Virus record (IMG/VR): IMGVR_UViG_3300045988_065712
From: a virus
Taxonomy: Duplodnaviria; Heunggongvirae; Uroviricota; Caudoviricetes
Direction: 5' to 3' (one strand)
Length of the DNA stretch: 21,739 nucleotides
The notes under the pieces: model-generated
Seen by the model: the letters and a program-made list of their open reading frames with translations, nothing else
What the model was told of the DNA's origin: nothing
The model's database searches: none
Position numbers and translations under genes: made by a program
Part shown: piece by piece, positions 1,956 through 21,739 of the stretch
Layout: the number at the start of each line of letters is the position of its first letter
Position numbering within the stretch: position 1 is the first letter of the stretch

Positions 1956-4403
1956 TTAACCGTCATGCATCATGCTGGCACGGGCGCGCGCACGTTTATC
2001 CCGCTCGTATTTTTCGAGCGCATCCTGTAACTGGCGGTCGAGCTGTGTCCCCGGCGCAGTACCACCCGTCAGGCTGATGTGATATTCGTTTTTACTCTGG
2101 TCTACATAAGAGCGGCCAGCCGGTGCCGTGACTGGCTGATAAGCCTGATAACCTGCATAAGAGCTGGTCGCCGGAATATAACCACCGCTGCCATACGTGG
2201 CGGCTTGAGTTCTGGCGGCGGTCTGGTCAAGTGTGTCTGACTCTTTGTTGATAACACCGAGTTTTTCCAGTACCCAGTCAATACCACTGCGCAGTTTGTT
2301 GAACGCATTAAGCGGCAGCATCAGCGCGTCAGCCAGTGCCTGCCCGAACATGACGCCCGTGTCACGGCAACGGTTCAGGGTGTCCTGGGTGGCTTTGACC
2401 GGGGCAATCAGGTTTTTAAACCACTGCCACGCGGCCTGTAACTTTTCACCCAGCCAGTCAAACACCGGTTTAAGTGGCGCGAACAGTTCCCCCACCGGCG
2501 CAAATGCCGCTTTCAGCCCTTCCACCACACCGCCAAAGAATGCGCTGACAGGCTCCCAGTATTTACGGATAAGCAACGCCCCGGCGACAATGGCGGCCAC
2601 CACGGCCACAACCGGCCAGCTAATCGCCCCGATGGCGGTTATAACAGCACTGCCAACCGTCGTGAAGATTGCCCCCATTGCGCCTGCTGCCGCGATGATG
2701 GCATTGATGCCGGTGATAACCGGCCAGGCTACGAGGCCAATGGCACCGATGACACCAATCAGTGCCAGTGCACCACCGACAATGATGCCGATGGTTGACG
2801 CCAGTGATTTGTTTTTCTGGATCCAGCCGTCGAGTTTTAACACATACTTTGTGGCCGTCTGCGTGAGATTACGCAGTGCGCCTTCCTGCTGGTCAAACAG
2901 GTCAGTCCCCACCGCCTCATAAGCGGACTGAAACTCCTTAAAGTCACCGCCGAGGTTGTCCTGCATGATATTTACCAGCTCTGCGGTCTTCCCGTCTGAG
3001 GCTTTAAACGCAGCGGTCAGTTTGTCCAGCTTTCCGGTTGAGGCGGCAGTCATCAGCACAGCGGCGGCTGAGCTGGCCTCCTCCCCGAAAATGGTTTTCA
3101 TGTATTCAGCCTGCTGGGCAGTACCGAGCCGGTTTTTCTCAAAACTGGCCTGCATTTCTTTCAGAATGGTAAATATTGGCCGGGTGTTTCCCTTGCTGTC
3201 TGAGGTTTTCACTCCAAGCTCTTTGAGTGCATCCCATGCTTTTCCCGTCGGTGCCTGCAGGCGGCTTAACACGGCACGGCTTCCCGTCCCCGCCATTGAG
3301 CCTGTGATTTTTGCATCATGCAGCGCCCCGACCATTGCGGCGGTTTCTTCAATGCTGACACCGGCATTTTTTGCCACAGGTGCGGCATAGGTCAGCGCAT
3401 CGCTCATGCCGTCAAAATCGGCGGCGGTTTTGTTCATCGTCATGGAGAGAACATCCCCGATATGAGCGACCTTATCGTTTGAAAGCTGAAAGGCGGATTT
3501 CATCCCCATCAGCAGGGCGGCGTTTTCTTCCATCGTGCGGCGGTTCGCCAGCGCCATATTCAGCGTGACCGGCGTTGCCGCCTGAATGGCATCAACATCC
3601 CCACCGGCTTTCGCAATGATAATCTGTGCACCGGCTGCATCATCTGCCGAGGCTGCGGTATTGTCGCCGAGCTGGCGCGCCTGCTTGCGGAGTGCGGTCA
3701 TTTCGGCGGAGTCTTTTGCCACTCCCAGCACAGCCTGCAATTCTGAGTTTTTCTGCGCAAACTCATAACCGGGCATCAGCAGCTTAACTCCGGCCATCGT
3801 TCCCGCAGCAGCAATCCCCACACCGGCAGCGCCCACCGAGACCATATTTCCGGCCAGCTCCTTTCCGGCCTGATAACGCTGTTTGACTGCGTTAAGTTTT
3901 GCCTGTTGCGCACTGACACGCGCCAGCGCGTCGCGCTGACGGTTAAGCTGTGCGGTGGTTTCACTGATACGGTTTTTCAGTCCCTGCTCATCATGTGCAA
4001 GATTGCGGGTATTAATTCCCACAGCGGCCAGTTCCCGCTGCTGGCGTTTAACGGAATCCGTCAGGCGGTTATATTTCGCCTGTAAGTCCTCCGCCGCACG
4101 CTTTGCGGATTCCAGCACTTTCGCCTGAGCACGGGTCGGACGTTCGGTGTTTTTAAACTGTGTGGCAAGGGCTTCGGCTTCCTGCCGAGCCTTTTCAAGT
4201 GCATGACCAGTCACGGCGAGCTGTGCACTGGTCTTGCGGAATCCCTCAATACGGGATGCCTGACCGTTCAGCTCGCGCAGTGATTTTTGTGTTTCCCGGA
4301 TATCCCCCGACAGCGACTTGCTCGCTGTGCGGATGGATTTAAACGGGCGGGATGCCTGGTCAACAGCCCTGAGCAATACCTGTAATTTTACATTGTTACT
4401 CAT
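1956..4403 (-). CDS. T: Tail tape-measure protein (P2 gpT-like), 815 aa
   Basis: 815-aa ORF with coiled-coil-like N-terminal half (many Q/R/E/A/L) and a Gly/Ala/Ile-rich hydrophobic segment (GGALALIGVIGAIGLVAWPVITGINAIIAAAGAMGAIF). Located directly after E/E'. Confidence 0.9.
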   Translation of the reverse strand: MSNNVKLQVLLRAVDQASRPFKSIRTASKSLSGDIRETQKSLRELNGQASRIEGFRKTSAQLAVTGHALEKARQEAEALATQFKNTERPTRAQAKVLESAKRAAEDLQAKYNRLTDSVKRQQRELAAVGINTRNLAHDEQGLKNRISETTAQLNRQRDALARVSAQQAKLNAVKQRYQAGKELAGNMVSVGAAGVGIAAAGTMAGVKLLMPGYEFAQKNSELQAVLGVAKDSAEMTALRKQARQLGDNTAASADDAAGAQIIIAKAGGDVDAIQAATPVTLNMALANRRTMEENAALLMGMKSAFQLSNDKVAHIGDVLSMTMNKTAADFDGMSDALTYAAPVAKNAGVSIEETAAMVGALHDAKITGSMAGTGSRAVLSRLQAPTGKAWDALKELGVKTSDSKGNTRPIFTILKEMQASFEKNRLGTAQQAEYMKTIFGEEASSAAAVLMTAASTGKLDKLTAAFKASDGKTAELVNIMQDNLGGDFKEFQSAYEAVGTDLFDQQEGALRNLTQTATKYVLKLDGWIQKNKSLASTIGIIVGGALALIGVIGAIGLVAWPVITGINAIIAAAGAMGAIFTTVGSAVITAIGAISWPVVAVVAAIVAGALLIRKYWEPVSAFFGGVVEGLKAAFAPVGELFAPLKPVFDWLGEKLQAAWQWFKNLIAPVKATQDTLNRCRDTGVMFGQALADALMLPLNAFNKLRSGIDWVLEKLGVINKESDTLDQTAARTQAATYGSGGYIPATSSYAGYQAYQPVTAPAGRSYVDQSKNEYHISLTGGTAPGTQLDRQLQDALEKYERDKRARARASMMHDG

Positions 4404-6660: not shown

Positions 6661-7254
6661 CTATTTGTCCCGGTTGGCTAAGGGATGACACAATTTATTC
6701 TTTGTCGCTGATGAGGGGAATTTTTTATAGAGCGTGGACAGGCCAATATCAAAAATCAGCGCCACGCGTTGACGTGATTCACCCGCAGCCAGCAACCGTC
6801 CTGCCTGTTCCCACTCACTCGCGGTGAGCTTCGGACGTCTGCCACCAATACGACCTTTAGCTCTGGTCGCTTCCAGTCCGGCGCGTGTCCGCTCGACAAT
6901 GAGTTCTCGTTCCATTTCAGCCAGGGCACCCATCACATGAAAGAAAAAACGCCCCATCGGCGTGCTGGTATCAATAGCATCCGTCAGGCTGCGAAAATTA
7001 ACGCCGCGTTCGCGCAGCTCCTCAACCAGAATGACCAGATGCCGCATACTACGCCCCAGCCTGTCCAGCTTCCAGACCACCAGTGTATCCCCCTCCGATA
7101 ATGTCCTGAGCAGTTTTTTCAGTCCCGGTCGGTCGGACTTAGTGCCGCTGATTTTATCCTCAAAAATCAGCTCACATCCTGCGCACTCCAGCGCGTTACG
7201 CTGCAATTCCGTGTTCTGGTCATTTGTTGACACGCGTACATAGCCAATAAGCAT
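6661..7254 (-). CDS. Site-specific DNA invertase, small serine recombinase of the Hin/Gin/Cin/Pin family
   Basis: N-terminus MLIGYVRVSTNDQNTELQRNALE... carries the catalytic-serine motif (VRVSTNDQ). Also GDTLVVWKLDRLGRS, FFHVMGALAEMERELIVERT and a C-terminal HTH-like segment (LSTLYKK). Start set at the third Met of the ORF-track ORF (7254), which has an AGGGGG Shine-Dalgarno about 6 nt upstream. The track start at 7260 is the alternative. Confidence 0.9.
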   Translation of the reverse strand: MLIGYVRVSTNDQNTELQRNALECAGCELIFEDKISGTKSDRPGLKKLLRTLSEGDTLVVWKLDRLGRSMRHLVILVEELRERGVNFRSLTDAIDTSTPMGRFFFHVMGALAEMERELIVERTRAGLEATRAKGRIGGRRPKLTASEWEQAGRLLAAGESRQRVALIFDIGLSTLYKKFPSSATKNKLCHPLANRDK

Positions 7255-7309
7255 GAGCATCCCCCTGAATAAAAACCGGAGATGATGCCAGTTACCCGTT
7301 GTCTCTGCA

Positions 7310-7335
7310 TTTTCATAAACGTTGGTTTGGGGGAA
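7310..7335. other. Candidate invertase crossover site (ttttcatAAACG-TT-GGTTTgggggaa)
   Basis: Contains the AAACx-NN-xGTTT core typical of Hin/Gin-family recombination sites. Lies about 55-80 bp upstream of the invertase start, where hix/gix-type sites sit, and at the 5' boundary of the promoterless fibre-tip cassette. Overall match to hix/gix is only partial. Confidence 0.4.
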
Positions 7336-7755
7336 GGCTCTGCACTGCCTGTTGGTGTGCCCGTTCCGTGGCCCTTAGAAACACCACCAACGGGCTGGCT
7401 AAAATGCAATGGTGCAGCATTTTCTTCTGAAATGTATCCCAAACTGGCAAAAGCCTACCCCACCAATAAATTACCGGATTTACGCGGTGAATTTATCCGT
7501 GGCTGGGATGATGGGCGCGGGATTGATGCGGGACGTACCCTGCTTTCAGGGCAGGATGGTACAAGTTTTTCTCATTACGGAGGTAATTTCGACATTGGGT
7601 CTGGTCATTCAATCAATAACTATGACCAAATTGTTTCTAACCAACCAGGATTTTCCCGTTTTTCATTTGCAGGGCCTTCACGAGGTGATGGGGTTAATTA
7701 TGTAACCATTCGTCCTCGTAACATTGCGTTTAATTATATCGTAAGGGCGGCATGA
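7322..7755 (+). CDS. Promoterless alternative tail-fibre C-terminal (receptor-binding tip) cassette, about 145 codons, opposite orientation to H
   Basis: ORF 7282..7755 encodes ...GEGSALPVGVPVPWPLETPPTGWLKCNGAAFSSEMYPKLAKAYPTNKLPDLRGEFIRGWDDGRGIDAGR..., a tail-collar-type fibre tip like the variable tip segments of Mu/P1-type invertible tail-fibre systems. No Shine-Dalgarno or promoter. The N-terminal 13 codons of the track ORF are read-through of the invertase promoter region. Confidence 0.7.
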
Positions 7756-7774
7756 AAACGTTCGTTTCGAACAG
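7749..7774. other. Second crossover-like site (ggcatgAAAACG-TT-CGTTTcgaacag) overlapping the cassette stop codon
   Basis: 12-mer aaacgttcgttt (7756..7767) is an 11/12 match to aaacgttggttt (7317..7328), with the same TT core on the same strand, so a direct repeat. Perfect 5-bp dyad AAACG/CGTTT around the core. Confidence 0.3.
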
Positions 7775-7803
7775 GAGGAGTAGCGGAGGGCTATGTTGCT
7801 TAG

Positions 7804-7851
7804 TTTGAAAATAGCTGGTCTTGCTGATGCGCATTGATGTAGCAAGACCAG
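7804..7851 (-). terminator. Probable rho-independent terminator of the V-W-J-I-H-G tail operon (11-bp stem, U-rich tail on minus strand)
   Basis: Perfect inverted repeat ctggtcttgct (7815..7825) and agcaagaccag (7841..7851) with a 15-nt loop. On the minus strand it lies 7 nt downstream of the G stop codon and is followed by CUAUUUUC. Confidence 0.5.
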
Positions 7852-7857
7852 TATGGT

Positions 7858-8226
7858 CTAAAGTTCCGGGATGACAGGCCAGTTAACATGCTCAGGGTCG
7901 GTTGTTACATCAACAGCCTTAACCTGATTCTTATATAAAAGCCACGCCGAAAGTTTAGCTCTGTTGGCATCGCTGATTTCACCCAGCATCAGCTCTGTGC
8001 GCCAGTCGAGCATAATTGCATCAGCGGCGGACAGTAATCGCTGTCGCTCATTTTCAGCAGCCTGGATGAGTTGTTCATGAGTCGGTGGGGGATTAATAAT
8101 TGCCATAGCCTCACTTCTGGTGATTGGCACAAGCCCTTCTTTGATAAAAGCATCCTGTGTGCCATACGCATCGTAGGCATATACGACGTTATTTTCATCT
8201 TTGTAATACTTCATCATTGTTATCAT
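7858..8226 (-). CDS. G: Tail fibre assembly chaperone (P2 gpG/Tfa-like function), 122 aa
   Basis: 122-aa ORF immediately downstream of the tail-fibre gene, with ATGA start/stop overlap with H. C-terminal ...HVNWPVIPEL is typical of Tfa chaperones. Shorter than, and unlike, P2 G as recalled. Confidence 0.8.
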   Translation of the reverse strand: MITMMKYYKDENNVVYAYDAYGTQDAFIKEGLVPITRSEAMAIINPPPTHEQLIQAAENERQRLLSAADAIMLDWRTELMLGEISDANRAKLSAWLLYKNQVKAVDVTTDPEHVNWPVIPEL

Positions 8227-9740
8227 TTTTTATCCACCTCTACCCAGGTAACATCTGACACTGTTCCTGAAAACTGCTGCACAATATAGGTCGCACCGGC
8301 AGGAACCATGAATGCGATAGTTGCTCTTTGCCCTGCAAGATTTGTTGTCTGAGAGCCGCGAAAATTAGCCGAATTACCATCCACATTAACGTTGGCGCTC
8401 AGAAATGAACTACCGTCAGACAGCACCGCATTGACGCTTACAAATATGGCGAAAGACTGGCTGTTGGTGTATACGACACCGAGATTTCTAGATTTCATTC
8501 CGCATTGACCAAACAACCCTTTCATATCTGAATAGTTTTGTGATGCAGCAAGTGATGATGCAGCAACACCAGATTCTGTTGATGTTCTGGAATCAGATAC
8601 GCGGATAATTCCCTTGTTTGTAGTGGTTGCATCATTAGTCTTGCCTTGCAGAGCTACAATATCCGCATAATTCATCGCTGCCGCTTTTGCTGTTGCAGCA
8701 AGCGTTTCAGATTCGGATACCCTTGATGATGTAAGTTGAACAATTCCTTTCTGTGTCGTAGTTGAATCCTGAGTTTTGTTTTGCAAAGATTTTATGTCCG
8801 TATAGTTTTGCGCGACAGCATTAGCTGTGGCTGCAATATCCTCTGCACCCGATACCCGCGATGAGGTTAACCGGACTAAACCCACCTGTGTTGTTGATGC
8901 GTCTTTAATACCAAGGTATGCAAGAAGACCGGCAACATCCTTCCCACTCAAATGAGTCAGCGTCTCATCCAGTGGCTGCTTACCTGACAGCGCATTGTTA
9001 ATGGTGGTACTGAATTTCGGGTCATTGTTAATGGCTGCGGCAATTTCTTTCAGTGTGTCCAGCGTGGCTGGCGCACCGTTAATCAGAGCGGTAATAGCGG
9101 CCTGAACAAACTCAGTGGTCGCAATCCGCGTGGTGTTATTTCCTGCGGCAGGCGTCGGCGCTTTTGGTTCTCCGGTAAATGTCGGATTATGTTTCTGTGC
9201 ATACTGGGTATGAGGATCCTGTGCGGCAATGTGGTTTCTCATCTGGTCATCCACATACAGCCTTAATTCCAGGACTTCATCATCCACGTATTTACGGGTC
9301 GCCAGTACCACCGACGGGTCGATTTTCAGCGTGATAGCTTCGGTATTCGTGACAACCAGAATCATGCGGATAGTCTGGGTACGACCGCTGCCTTCCTGCA
9401 ACTGCGGTTTGTACGTTTCCGGGCAGTTCGCCACCGCAATGAGTACGCCTTCATCATCATAAAGCCCAATCTCACGGATCCAGAATCCGCCCTCGTTCTC
9501 AGGGATGATTTGCTCCGCAATAATCTGGCTCTGGTTGTTCGGGTCAACACTCAGAAGATTCAGCGGCGCGATGCGTTTCTGGTTAATCAGTTTTGTCTGT
9601 GCCGGGTCTGGTGTCGGCAAGACACCATTCGCATCACCAACTGCCATTTGCGTCAGATTCAGCTTACTGCCGAGCATCGTCGCGTTAGCCAGCCGTGCTG
9701 CGCCCTGATTAGTCAGAATGGCGTAGTATTTCACTGTCAT
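8223..9740 (-). CDS. H: Tail fibre protein (P2 gpH-like N-terminus, divergent C-terminal half), 505 aa
   Basis: N-terminal region (AVGDANGVLPTP..., GGFWIREIGLYDDEGVLIAVANCPETYKPQLQEGSGRTQTIRMILVV) resembles the conserved baseplate-attachment domain of P2 H. Central triple repeat and a distinct C-terminal domain. Positioned between I and G. Confidence 0.88.
   Translation of the reverse strand: MTVKYYAILTNQGAARLANATMLGSKLNLTQMAVGDANGVLPTPDPAQTKLINQKRIAPLNLLSVDPNNQSQIIAEQIIPENEGGFWIREIGLYDDEGVLIAVANCPETYKPQLQEGSGRTQTIRMILVVTNTEAITLKIDPSVVLATRKYVDDEVLELRLYVDDQMRNHIAAQDPHTQYAQKHNPTFTGEPKAPTPAAGNNTTRIATTEFVQAAITALINGAPATLDTLKEIAAAINNDPKFSTTINNALSGKQPLDETLTHLSGKDVAGLLAYLGIKDASTTQVGLVRLTSSRVSGAEDIAATANAVAQNYTDIKSLQNKTQDSTTTQKGIVQLTSSRVSESETLAATAKAAAMNYADIVALQGKTNDATTTNKGIIRVSDSRTSTESGVAASSLAASQNYSDMKGLFGQCGMKSRNLGVVYTNSQSFAIFVSVNAVLSDGSSFLSANVNVDGNSANFRGSQTTNLAGQRATIAFMVPAGATYIVQQFSGTVSDVTWVEVDKK
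8511..8900 (-). repeat. Three tandem copies of a roughly 45-codon (135-bp) repeat inside the tail-fibre shaft of H
   Basis: Protein residues about 281-410: ASTTQVGLVRLTSSRVSGAEDIAATANAVAQNYTDIKSLQNKTQD / STTTQKGIVQLTSSRVSESETLAATAKAAAMNYADIVALQGKTND / ATTTNKGIIRVSDSRTSTESGVAASSLAASQNYSDMKGLFGQ. The DNA-level periodicity is visible. Confidence 0.65.
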
Positions 9741-17645: not shown

Positions 17646-18500
17646 TCAGCAGTTCGTCATCAGGGCGTCACCGCCACCACCGGTGGCCTTGCTGCGGCGC
17701 TGCTGGGTCAGACTTTCGGTGTGGTCGAGACTGTTTTTCAGGCGGGTGAATGCCTGGCTGGTTTCATCCGCCCTGTCAGTCACCTCCTGCTTAAGTGCAG
17801 AAAAGGCGGTTTCCATCTCAGAGAGGCGCTGCTCAGTGGCGCTCAGTTTTTCCTGCACATGTTCAGCAACAGCGGTCACCGCTTCATGCACGTCATTCAG
17901 ACGGGCGTCATCGCTGGCCTGTTTGCGGCCAAAAATGGATTTCACCTTTTCGGTCAGGGCGGTGAACACGGTTTCAGGCAGGTCTTCAAATTCCAGCTCA
18001 ACAGGCGTTGCCACTGAAATCAGGTTTTCAGGGCTTAATTTGAAGCGGTTCAGGGGGTTGTGTTTTGCCGTGCGGCAGAATTCCAGGTATTCCGTGCCGA
18101 GGCTTGCCGGGTCATCGGTGACGGCCAGACCCACCAGATAACATTTGCCGGTGTTGGCAAAGTTCGGCTGAATTTCCATTGAGGTGTAGACCTTCTGCGC
18201 GGCCTTGTTCATCGCGATAAGGTCATCGGTCGGGGTGATTTTCGCAAACAGCGCCCATTTGCCTTTCAGCGCCGAATCATCGTCAATCTTTTCGGCCTTC
18301 AGTTCGGCCACATCGCCATAACGCTTAAAAATACCGTCAGGCAGGATGCCGCGCAGATGTTCCAGGTTAATGCGGCAACCATAGACTCGCGGGTCAAAGG
18401 TTTCGGCCATTTCCTGAATATCCTGCGCACTGATGACACGCCCGTCACAGGTGTCACCCTCAACGCCGATACGAAAGAATTTTGAGACTTTTTTTGCCAT
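17646..18500 (-). CDS. O: Capsid scaffolding protein (P2 gpO-like), 284 aa
   Basis: Track ORF 17646..18566 trimmed to the internal Met (MAKKVSKFFRIGVEGDT...) giving 284 aa, the P2 gpO length. CAT at 18498..18500 checked. Confidence 0.85.
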   Translation of the reverse strand: MAKKVSKFFRIGVEGDTCDGRVISAQDIQEMAETFDPRVYGCRINLEHLRGILPDGIFKRYGDVAELKAEKIDDDSALKGKWALFAKITPTDDLIAMNKAAQKVYTSMEIQPNFANTGKCYLVGLAVTDDPASLGTEYLEFCRTAKHNPLNRFKLSPENLISVATPVELEFEDLPETVFTALTEKVKSIFGRKQASDDARLNDVHEAVTAVAEHVQEKLSATEQRLSEMETAFSALKQEVTDRADETSQAFTRLKNSLDHTESLTQQRRSKATGGGGDALMTNC

Positions 18501-18673
18501 TGTCAGGAGTCCTGAATAGTGATTAGAGGAGTCACATGTCGGCATCAGTTTCCCGACGATGCGCATCCTCCGCCATCAGTCCCGGATGGCTTATCACTGA
18601 CACAACAGCACCTTAGCGAATCGCGGGGCGCGACTCAGTAGCCTTGCCGTGTATTCATCACGGCGAGGTATTC
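18501..18673. promoter_or_regulatory. Divergent late-promoter region between O (minus) and P (plus); candidate Ogr-type element TGG-N12-ACA at 18587..18604
   Basis: 173-bp intergenic region between divergently transcribed late operons, as in P2 where Ogr-dependent promoters sit here. One near-consensus TGT-N12-ACA-like dyad (TGG cttatcactgac ACA) and a repeated motif catcagt(t)(t)cccg at 18543..18556 and 18574..18586. Exact -10 elements not resolved. Confidence 0.4.
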
Positions 18674-20475
18674 ATGACCATCACCACAGACACCACTCTT
18701 TTACACGACCCGCGTCGTCAGGCGGCGCTGCTGTACTGGCAGGGGTTTTCCGTGCCGCAGATTGCCGCCATGTTGCAGATGAAACGTCCGACGGTGCAGA
18801 GCTGGAAACAGCGCGACGGCTGGGACAGCGTTGCCCCCATCAGCCGTGTCGAAATGAGTCTGGAAGCGCGACTGACCCAGCTCATCATCAAACCGCAGAA
18901 AACCGGCGGTGACTTCAAGGAAATTGACCTGCTGGGACGCCAGATTGAACGACTGGCACGGGTAAACCGCTACAGTCAGACCGGCAACGAGGCAGACCTT
19001 AATCCGAACGTCGCTAACCGCAACAAAGGCGGGCGTCGCAAACCGAAAAAGAATTTTTTCAGTGACGAGGCCATCGAAAAGCTGGAGCAGATTTTCTTTG
19101 AGCAGTCTTTCGAATATCAGTTGCACTGGTATCGCGCCGGGCTTGAGCACCGCATCCGCGATATCCTGAAATCCCGCCAGATTGGCGCGACGTTTTATTT
19201 TTCCCGCGAGGCGCTGCTGCGCGCCCTGAAAACCGGTCATAACCAGATTTTTCTGTCGGCCAGTAAAACGCAGGCGTATGTGTTCCGCGAATACATCATC
19301 GCCTTTGCCCGGCTGGTTGACGTTGACCTGACCGGTGACCCGATTGTCCTGGGCAATAACGGCGCAAAACTGATTTTTCTCGGCACCAACTCCAACACCG
19401 CACAGAGCCATAACGGCGACCTGTACGTCGACGAGATTTTCTGGATCCCGAATTTTCAGGTACTGCGTAAGGTGGCATCAGGTATGGCCTCACAGAGTCA
19501 CCTGCGCTCGACCTATTTCTCCACCCCGTCCACGCTGGCGCACGACGCCTACCCGTTCTGGTCGGGTGAACTGTTCAACCGGGGACGCGCCAGCGCCGCC
19601 GAACGCGTGGAAATCGACGTCAGTCATAACGCCCTTGCCGGAGGTCTTCTCTGTGCGGACGGCCAGTGGCGGCAGATTGTCACCATTGAGGACGCCCTGA
19701 AAGGCGGCTGCACGCTGTTCGACATTGAGCAGCTCAAACGTGAAAACAGCGCCGACGATTTTAAAAACCTGTTCATGTGTGAATTTGTTGACGACAAGGC
19801 GTCGGTGTTCCCGTTCGAGGAGCTGCAACGCTGCATGGTCGACACGCTGGAAGAATGGGAAGACTATGCGCCGTTTGCCGCGAATCCGTTCGGCTCCCGC
19901 CCGGTCTGGATTGGTTACGACCCGTCACACCGTGGCGACAGCGCCGGATGCGTGGTGCTGGCACCGCCGGGGCCGGATGCGTGGTGCTGGCACCGCCGGT
20001 GGTGGCCGGTGGCAAATTCAGAATACTTGAGCGTCACCAGTGGAAAGGCATGGACTTTGCCACCCAGGCTGAATCCATCCGCAAACTCACCGAAAAATAT
20101 AACGTCGAATACATCGGTATTGATGCCACCGGCCTCGGTGTCGGCGTGTTCCAGCTCGTGCGCTCGTTCTATCCCGCCGCGCGCGACATCCGCTACACGC
20201 CGGAAATGAAAACCGCAATGGTGCTCAAGGCAAAAGACGTCATCCGCCGTGGCTGTCTGGAATATGACGTCAGCGCCACCGACATCACCAGCTCGTTTAT
20301 GGCTATCCGCAAGACCATGACCAGCAGCGGACGCAGCGCCACCTATGAGGCCAGCCGCAGCGAGGAAGCCAGCCACGCCGACCTCGCCTGGGCGACCATG
20401 CACGCCCTGTTAAATGAGCCACTCACCGCGGGTATCAGCACTCCGCTGACATCCACCATTCTGGAGTTTTACTGA
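18674..20475 (+). pseudogene. P: Terminase large subunit (P2 gpP-like), frame disrupted by a 29-bp tandem duplication at 19942..19999
   Basis: Track shows two overlapping fragments: 18644..20209 (N-terminal part, then a W/R/C-rich nonsense tail) and 19855..20475 (C-terminal part in another frame). Start set at MTITTDTTLL (ATG 18674, GAGGT Shine-Dalgarno). Span minus 29 bp is 1773 nt, i.e. 590 codons plus stop, the P2 gpP length. Confidence 0.85.
19942..19999 (+). repeat. Imperfect 29-bp tandem duplication inside P (28/29 identical)
   Basis: 19942..19970 cgccggatgcgtggtgctggcaccgccgg and 19971..19999 ggccggatgcgtggtgctggcaccgccgg, compared base by base. The peptide GCVVLAPP is encoded twice. 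Confidence 0.92.
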
Positions 20476-21538
20476 TGAGCAAGAAAAAAGGGAAAACACC
20501 GCAACCTGCGGCAAAAACAATGACCGCCAGCGCCCCGAAAATGGAGACATTCACCTTTGGTGAGCCGGTGCCGGTACTCGACCGCCGTGACATTCTGGAT
20601 TACATCGAGTGCATCAGTAACGGCAGATGGTATGAGCCGCCGGTCAGCTTTACCGATGGTATGAGCCACCGGTCAGCTTTACCGGTCTGGCAAAAAGCCT
20701 GCGTGCTGCCGTGCATCACAGTTCACCGATTTACGTCAAACGTAATATTCTGGCTTCAACGTTTATTCCGCACCCGTGGCTTTCGCAACAGGATTTCAGC
20801 CGCTTTGTGCTGGATTTTCTGGTGTTCGGTAATGCGTTTCTGGAAAAGCGTTACAGCACCACCGGTAAGGTCATCAGACTGGAAACCTCACCGGCAAAAT
20901 ATACCCGCCGTGGCGTGGAGGAGGATGTTTACTGGTGGGTGCCGTCCTTCAACGAACCGACAGCCTTCACGCCCGGCTCCGTGTTTCACCTGCTGGAGCC
21001 GGATATTAATCAGGAGCTGTACGGCCTGCCGGAATATCTCAGCGCCCTTAACTCTGCCTGGCTGAATGAGTCGGCCACACTGTTCCGCCGCAAGTATTAC
21101 GAAAACGGCGCGCATGCCGGATACATCATGTACGTTACCGATGCCGTGCAGGATCGCAACGATATCGAAATGCTTCGCGAAAACATGGTTAAGTCGAAAG
21201 GCCGCAACAACTTTAAAAACCTGTTTCTCTATGCCCCACAGGGGAAAGCCGACGGCATTAAAATTATCCCGCTCAGTGAAGTGGCAACGAAGGACGATTT
21301 TTTTAATATCAAAAAAGCCAGCGCCGCTGACCTGCTGGACGCGCACCGCATCCCCTTTCAGTTGATGGGAGGCAAGCCGGAGAACGTCGGGTCGCTGGGT
21401 GATATTGAGAAAGTGGCAAAGGTCTTTGTCCGCAATGAGCTTATCCCGTTACAGGACAGGATTCGGGAAATAAACGGCTGGCTCGGTCAGGAGGTCATCC
21501 GCTTTAAAAACTACTCACTGGACACAGACAACGGCTGA
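20475..21538 (+). pseudogene. Q: Portal protein (P2 gpQ-like), frame disrupted by a 29-bp tandem duplication at 20627..20684
   Basis: Track shows 20475..21065 (N-terminal 62 aa, then nonsense) and 20711..21538 (rest of portal in another frame). Span minus 29 bp is 1035 nt, i.e. 344 codons plus stop, the P2 gpQ length. ATG overlaps the P stop (TGATG). Confidence 0.85.
20627..20684 (+). repeat. Imperfect 29-bp tandem duplication inside Q (28/29 identical)
   Basis: 20627..20655 atggtatgagccgccggtcagctttaccg and 20656..20684 atggtatgagccaccggtcagctttaccg. Single G/A difference at 20639 vs 20668. Confidence 0.92.
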
Positions 21539-21566: not shown

Positions 21567-21707
21567 CACCCCGTCATCACGCCCTCACACACTCACCACC
21601 GCACAAAACAGCCCGCAGACACACCAGCGCCCCGGCGCACAATCTAAACGCCATTACGACGCGCTGAGACGCTGAAAAAATAAAATCAGCACCACCGCCA
21701 GCGCGCA

Positions 21708-21726
21708 GTGCTTTCCCCGCCTCGCC
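21708..21726. other. cos: cos site: 19-nt cohesive-end sequence of P2-type phages (reverse complement of GGCGAGGCGGGGAAAGCAC)
   Basis: Plus strand reads gtgctttccccgcctcgcc, the exact reverse complement of the 19-nt P2 cohesive end as I recall it. Lies about 170 bp beyond Q, the expected position. Confidence 0.65.
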
Positions 21727-21739
21727 CGCCCGCTTCATG

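Follow-up and report, generated by a model that had tools for sequence, protein, structure and literature searches.

The late region of phage P2 offers the closest described counterpart of the portal gene considered here. Two kinds of known event bear on the way in which such a gene may come to be written in two frames. Slipped-strand and template-switch duplications in decaying prophages are short tandem duplications that frameshift phage structural genes in lysogen-type contexts. Untrimmed contig-end overlaps and gap-closing duplications leave fixed-length head-to-tail repeats at successive seams, with no conservation or evolutionary signal. The locus resembles the former in frameshift and setting, and the latter in its pair of equal repeats, with a source change at one seam and an odd base at the other. 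It differs from slippage products in that its units lack flanking repeats, are equal in length, and are imperfect yet of about zero age, while it differs from untrimmed overlaps in that the repeated segments are inexact and their 29 nt do not cleanly fit the k-1 of a known assembler.

The stretch of DNA that was analysed, hereafter the window, is 21,739 nt long and contains the complete late region of a P2-like (Peduovirus) prophage. It runs from the ogr end to cos, as is indicated by the cos 19-mer found at 21708-21726. The minus strand encodes D, U, T, E/E', FII, FI, an invertase together with a tail-fibre segment, H, I, J, W, V, S, R, the lysis genes, X, L, M, N and O. The plus strand encodes P, for the terminase large subunit (18674-20475), and Q, for the portal (20475-21538). 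From ogr to cos the genes follow the P2 order, and the window as a whole is 97-98% identical to numerous prophages of E. coli, as well as to phages such as pro483. As with Q of P2, the window's Q lies downstream of P, overlaps it (the Q ATG overlaps the P stop codon, ATGA), and adjoins cos, with a tQ-like terminator and the cos 19-mer downstream. The window differs from the P2 operon in that its Q, as written, has a 29-nt insertion after codon 60 and is unable to encode gpQ, and in that its P bears a matching insertion. The features that frame the two lesions are as follows.

18674..20475, plus strand: gene P for the terminase large subunit, interrupted by the companion 29-nt insertion; 590 aa after repair
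20475..20655, plus strand: 5' part of Q in its native frame, codons 1-60 (...RWYEPPVSFT), including copy 1; from translation and alignment to P2 gpQ
20627..20655, plus strand: copy 1, with the G allele at 20639 (CCG, Pro), the last variant site of a divergent tract covering 20503-20639
20656..20684, plus strand: copy 2, with the A allele at 20668 (CCA, Pro), the allele of relatives L094 and L099 and of P2
20685..21538, plus strand: 3' part of Q, codons 61-344, shifted by +2 relative to the start codon
21544..21569, plus strand: terminator-like hairpin and T-run after Q, the counterpart of P2 tQ
21708..21726, minus strand: cos 19-mer, identical to P2 cosL

Within Q, positions 20627-20655 (ATGGTATGAGCCGCCGGTCAGCTTTACCG) and 20656-20684 (ATGGTATGAGCCACCGGTCAGCTTTACCG) are head-to-tail copies of 29 nt that meet at CTTTACCG-ATGGTATG. 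Each copy is preceded by G, and they differ by a single mismatch, G at 20639 against A at 20668. The first-pass annotation had described this tandem duplication, and it is borne out by the sequence itself, by TRF (20626-20684, period 29, 2.0 copies, score 111) and by a period scan, in which the period-29 self-match covers 20626-20655. Translation confirms the consequence that it had proposed for the portal: the frame continues as ...NGRWYEPPVSFT and then enters nonsense (DGMSHRSALPV...) up to a stop at 21063-21065, and the rest of the portal, HHSSPIYVKRNILAST..., lies within the ORF at 20711-21538. As written, the gene has no uninterrupted frame of about 344 aa, the frame being lost after codon 60. 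When either copy is deleted in silico, a gene of 1035 nt (344 codons and a stop) spanning 20475-21538 is restored, just as had been predicted. The repaired protein aligns without gaps to P2 gpQ (NP_046757.1), with 339 of 343 residues identical (99%), and it scores 53.4 bits against the Pfam Phage_portal family PF04860, above the cut-off of 39.1, so the assignment to the P2 gpQ-type portals also stands. The ORF at 20711-21538, which opens with GTG and encodes 275 aa, holds the entire Pfam domain and scores 54.3 bits. A PDB sequence search with Q returned no solved homologue.

The second lesion lies in P, 684 nt upstream of that in Q, and two further features are needed to describe it.

19943..20000, plus strand: P lesion, consisting of the 28-mer GCCGGATGCGTGGTGCTGGCACCGCCGG, a G (19971), the same 28-mer and a T; net gain 29 nt
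19972..20655, plus strand: stretch of 684 nt between the two junctions, a candidate "middle piece" holding 10 of the 16 differences from L094

The P junction reads CCGCCGG-G-GCCGGATG, and its period-29 repeat site is at 19941-20000. As in Q, the self-match covers 30 positions with one mismatch, located at the edge of the unit in P and at unit position 13 in Q. Neither of the two possible alignments makes the G at 19971 a natural allele: in the relatives the 28-mer is followed by T and preceded by C or T. Once repaired, P (590 aa) is an exact and very common allele, present on at least 1,000 contigs. The split terminase of KC618326 was considered as another instance of this lesion and set aside, its split being near the N-terminus and unrelated.

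Both insertions are unique in everything that was searched. A scan of the window for tandem repeats (periods 15-60, at most one mismatch) recovers the Q and P sites and nothing else, and none appears in 30 dinucleotide shuffles. A similar scan at periods 15-150 finds none in 674,750 nt from 99 related loci. BLAST was run against 5,426 complete E. coli genomes with a 191-nt query for the Q region and a 181-nt query for the P region; about 1,520 of these genomes carry the region, and a duplicated copy would have ranked first. None of the E. coli matches listed has either duplication: they span 162 nt for Q and 152 nt for P, that is, the query minus 29, and the same shortened spans, again with neither duplication, are found in 75 phage records. 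Among 598 IMG/VR relatives confirmed by tblastn, the 80 that were inspected all have an uninterrupted portal of 343-344 aa with no duplication. The interruption thus has no carrier among the relatives listed or inspected, and an intact homologous portal with the duplicated segment in frame, which would have told against the first-pass reading, was sought among them and not found. The Q junction string is absent from collections of genome representatives, metagenomes and viral contigs. The only match of the P junction string in such searches is a chance one, in a GC-rich Alicyclobacillus contig that is not a carrier. Exact look-up in a collection of 15 billion proteins finds neither the N-terminal fragment proteins that the window encodes from P and Q nor the repaired Q protein, and the repaired P is very common there. 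The literature on 29-bp duplications and on P2 portal frameshifts yielded nothing relevant.

Near-isogenic relatives show how little else separates the window from intact prophages. One of them, L094 (Logan ERR14952747), was retrieved through the window's exact J protein and has both P (590 aa) and Q (344 aa) intact. Across 20.3 kb, 16 SNPs and the two 29-nt insertions are all that separates it from the window, with no other indels, and L095-L097 behave in the same way. Over about 19 kb of E. coli W12-1, the two 29-nt insertions are again the sole indels. After repair, the P-Q segment (2,807 nt) has no base that is private with respect to 97 relatives.

The same comparison locates the mismatch in Q. 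It is a natural synonymous polymorphism, CCG against CCA, with G in 17 of 81 relatives and A in the remaining 64. Apart from the P insertion, the IMG/VR relative L099 is identical to the window over 18857-20502; differences follow at 20503, 20507, 20518, 20547, 20564 and 20639, and identity resumes from copy 2 to 20955. L098 has the window's haplotype over 20503-20564. Copy 1, with its G, extends the divergent tract 20503-20639, and copy 2, with its A, is identical to L099 and L094 together with the next 290-650 nt. Since copy 1 has the allele of the upstream tract and copy 2 that of the downstream background, the window switches parental haplotype at the Q junction itself. L099 matches the window exactly on either side of the P seam, where no haplotype change is evident. 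The clustering between the seams of 10 of the 16 SNPs relative to L094 suggested a foreign patch of 684 nt bounded by both duplications. This was rejected: comparison with L099 shows the SNPs clustered at the left to belong to an ordinary background haplotype, and only the Q seam coincides with a haplotype change.

The N-terminal coding part of Q (20503-20604) also combines two rare alleles, each found in one other lineage among about 100 relatives: A at 20547 (Thr25), common to L098, and A at 20604 (Ile44), common to L099.

Because the repaired P-Q segment has no private substitutions, both lesions are essentially age-zero, and yet, on their sequence, both are imperfect. That both units drifted after a perfect duplication can be rejected, the probability being about 0.004 or less and private substitutions being absent. 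Slippage accounts poorly for this pair. It should produce copies that are identical at birth, whereas each unit here has one mismatch despite a background free of private substitutions. It should also leave direct repeats of about 3-4 nt or more at the unit ends, one unit length apart, and these are absent. The Q unit ends share a 1-nt G microhomology only, and those of P contain GCCGG repeats 23 nt apart, which predict a period of 23 and not 29; at neither seam is there microhomology predicting a 29-nt slip. Templating by a hairpin or quasi-palindrome was likewise rejected, with a folding z of about -1 and no fitting inverted repeats in the flanks.

The first-pass annotation had called the Q duplication independent of that in P. 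This part of its account is unsupported: the two insertions have the same 29-nt length and one mismatch each, lie 684 nt apart, have no repeats that would explain slippage, and are the sole indels relative to near-isogenic relatives in a sequence otherwise devoid of private changes. Taken together, these features point to a single process for both insertions rather than to two independent ones.

The single process that best fits is an error of joining. We infer that the two 29-nt quasi-duplications are overlaps left untrimmed during sequence assembly or joining, a reading to which we give about an even chance, and that a pipeline would be responsible for them. Three pieces (up to 19971, 19972-20655, and from 20656 onward) would have been abutted with their terminal overlaps of about 29-30 nt left in place. 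This could have happened during contig joining, scaffolding, gap closing or another finishing stage, possibly in a sample with more than one P2-like prophage, and the phage behind the record would then have intact P and Q. Overlap joining predicts equal lengths at successive seams, and 29 nt is found at both. A fixed software parameter would explain this equality, which two independent mutations leave unexplained. The artefact would also account for the zero age, for the odd base at the P seam and for the haplotype change at the Q seam. In particular, a G at 19971 that is no natural allele is what would be expected of an erroneous base at a contig tip or of a filled gap base. A public metagenome scaffold, L092 (ENA ERZ28642905 scaffold_5743), has a run of 10 N inside the 29-nt Q unit, at about 2515-2525. 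The run corresponds approximately to window positions 20666-20670 and replaces the bases around the polymorphic CCA/CCG codon. This gap indicates that assemblers do break at the Q unit when P2-like variants are mixed.

Several observations weigh against joining. No assembler or finishing tool can be named that leaves mismatched overlaps of 29 nt, no haplotype change like that in Q is evident at the P seam, and elsewhere the window is high-quality sequence, free of homopolymer errors relative to L094. Moreover, the switch at the Q seam could also be explained by a real duplication and a conversion tract stopped at the heterology. Two explicit assembly schemes were considered. Overlaps in De Bruijn graphs should be exact and k-1 long, and overlaps of this kind were rejected, as they leave the mismatches unexplained. 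A linearised SNP bubble in a k=15 graph, which would have branches of 2k-1 = 29 nt, was also rejected, the mismatch being off-centre in Q and at the edge in P.

The principal alternative is that P and Q have undergone real and very recent mutations, giving a packaging-dead prophage; we consider this possible, though we hold it tentatively. The lesions would have arisen through two template-switch or slippage duplications, or through one replication-repair event with two backward switches. The terminase would lose its nuclease domain and the portal would be truncated after residue 60. Tails, capsid and lysis proteins would still be made, but there would be no portal-containing procapsids and no DNA packaging, and a P4-type satellite could not be supported. 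The mismatch in Q would stem from a later recombination tract from another P2-like donor ending at the insertion, which is plausible since P2-like phages recombine heavily and a conversion tract may stop at a 29-nt heterology. Prophage decay by frameshift is common, the remainder of the window is clean, high-quality sequence, and public assemblies contain further split Q genes (a 1-nt deletion in L084 and several deletion remnants). A fragile spot is even hinted at: in independent remnants the deletion joints cluster at ACCGGT, within 3-7 nt of the unit's 3' edge in Q, and each duplication has its donor-side end in an RCCGGY site. Against real mutations stand the identical 29-nt length on two occasions, for which the rough chance is a few percent, the absence of flanking direct repeats for slippage (with the 23 nt predicted by the P GCCGG repeats), and the imperfection of both units on an unmutated background. 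The G at 19971 would further require an untemplated or misincorporated base, and neither lesion is found in any other genome searched. E. coli is not known to have a classical end-joining pathway. On balance, a construction artefact is at least as likely as real mutation, and a joining error or a very recent lesion is more likely than any interesting biology.

Deliberate or in-silico alteration appears improbable. Here a 29-nt segment would have been copied beside itself with one substitution, either in engineered P and Q knock-outs or through edits made while the record or window was being prepared. Such a procedure would readily give equal lengths, one substitution per unit at unrelated positions, a background without private substitutions, and absence from everywhere searched. 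However, as the unit has five polymorphic sites, a substitution placed at random in Q would meet a natural alternative allele only about 6% of the time, and the window contains no vector, scar or marker sequence. No laboratory method is known to leave duplications of 29 nt.

It is very doubtful that both lesions are real products of one length-measuring process. Examples would be cuts staggered by 28-29 nt that an enzyme makes and that are then filled in and rejoined, giving 28-mer, G, 28-mer, or restriction-type breakage at RCCGGY with repair from a second P2-like template. Type I-E CRISPR adaptation in E. coli duplicates a repeat of 28 bp, and G is the first base of the new spacer. Both window lesions formally read as a 28-mer, G and the same 28-mer, but the resemblance to the CRISPR duplicon is numerical only. 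Off-target integration by Cas1-Cas2 was rejected, since a single G separates the 28-mers in place of a 32-33-nt spacer, and there is no leader, no repeat-like sequence and no CRISPR context.

A functional split, in which the portal is made by programmed frameshifting or the 275-aa C-terminal product is a separate protein, would suit an ORF that holds the whole Pfam portal domain and is called in 16 public contigs, but it is effectively refuted by the lack of conservation (no relative listed or inspected has the duplication) and has next to no likelihood, as neither a slippery site nor a Shine-Dalgarno-like sequence is seen upstream of the GTG at 20711, the 16 contigs are deletion remnants or carry other lesions, and the terminase has a matching lesion.

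Biologically, the pair of insertions is either an artefact or an ordinary and very young pair of pseudogenes, and its significance differs accordingly. If it is an artefact, two essential phage genes would be misannotated as pseudogenes and an intact, probably inducible P2-like prophage would be scored as defective, and the practical value then lies in correction of the record. The case would also provide a signature by which such artefacts may be recognised: quasi-duplications of equal length, no divergence of the background, and a haplotype change at a seam. If the insertions are real, the window represents an ordinary packaging-dead prophage that retains its tail and lysis genes and arose through an unusual matched pair of mutations. 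This would be of modest interest, unless the equality at 29 nt reflects a defined mechanism. Were a length-measuring process true, it would be a previously undescribed route for knocking out prophage packaging genes in E. coli.

Elsewhere in the window, a serine recombinase (invertase) gene lies at 6661-7260 on the minus strand. Beside it, the ORFs at 7282-7755 (plus strand) and 7858-8226 (minus strand) encode a tail-fibre C-terminal part and a chaperone in opposite orientations, and the region 6661-8226 looks like an invertible host-range segment of the Gin/Cin type. Positions 7537-8909 do not align to E. coli W12-1. The scaffold gene O (17646-18566) is read mechanically as an ORF of 306 aa through an in-frame upstream ATG, and is annotated at 284 aa in relatives. 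The left end of the window is within 1-2 nt of the ogr stop codon, and the right end equally near the start of an ORF of 53 aa that lies immediately beyond cos (21577-21738, minus strand). The closeness of both ends to CDS ends suggests that the window was cut at annotated gene boundaries.

Other P2-like loci have breaks of their own in Q. In L084 (Logan SRR31599539_39), P is intact and the loss of 1 nt from the A5 run GGCAAAAAGCC, equivalent to window positions 20690-20694, splits Q; the gene caller gives the same 275-aa C-terminal product. In degraded P2-like prophages (L085-L091 and L093), the deletion joints in Q are at 20678-20681 or at 20575. To the left of the 20678-20681 joints are found P at nt 18749, T at nt 3796 with 151 nt of M, or unrelated DNA. 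Both joint spots (window 20570-20575 and 20678-20686) are RCCGGY sites, ACCGGT and GCCGGT, and these sites in Q may mark a rearrangement hot spot, or else the remnants may share ancestry at the same chromosomal locus.
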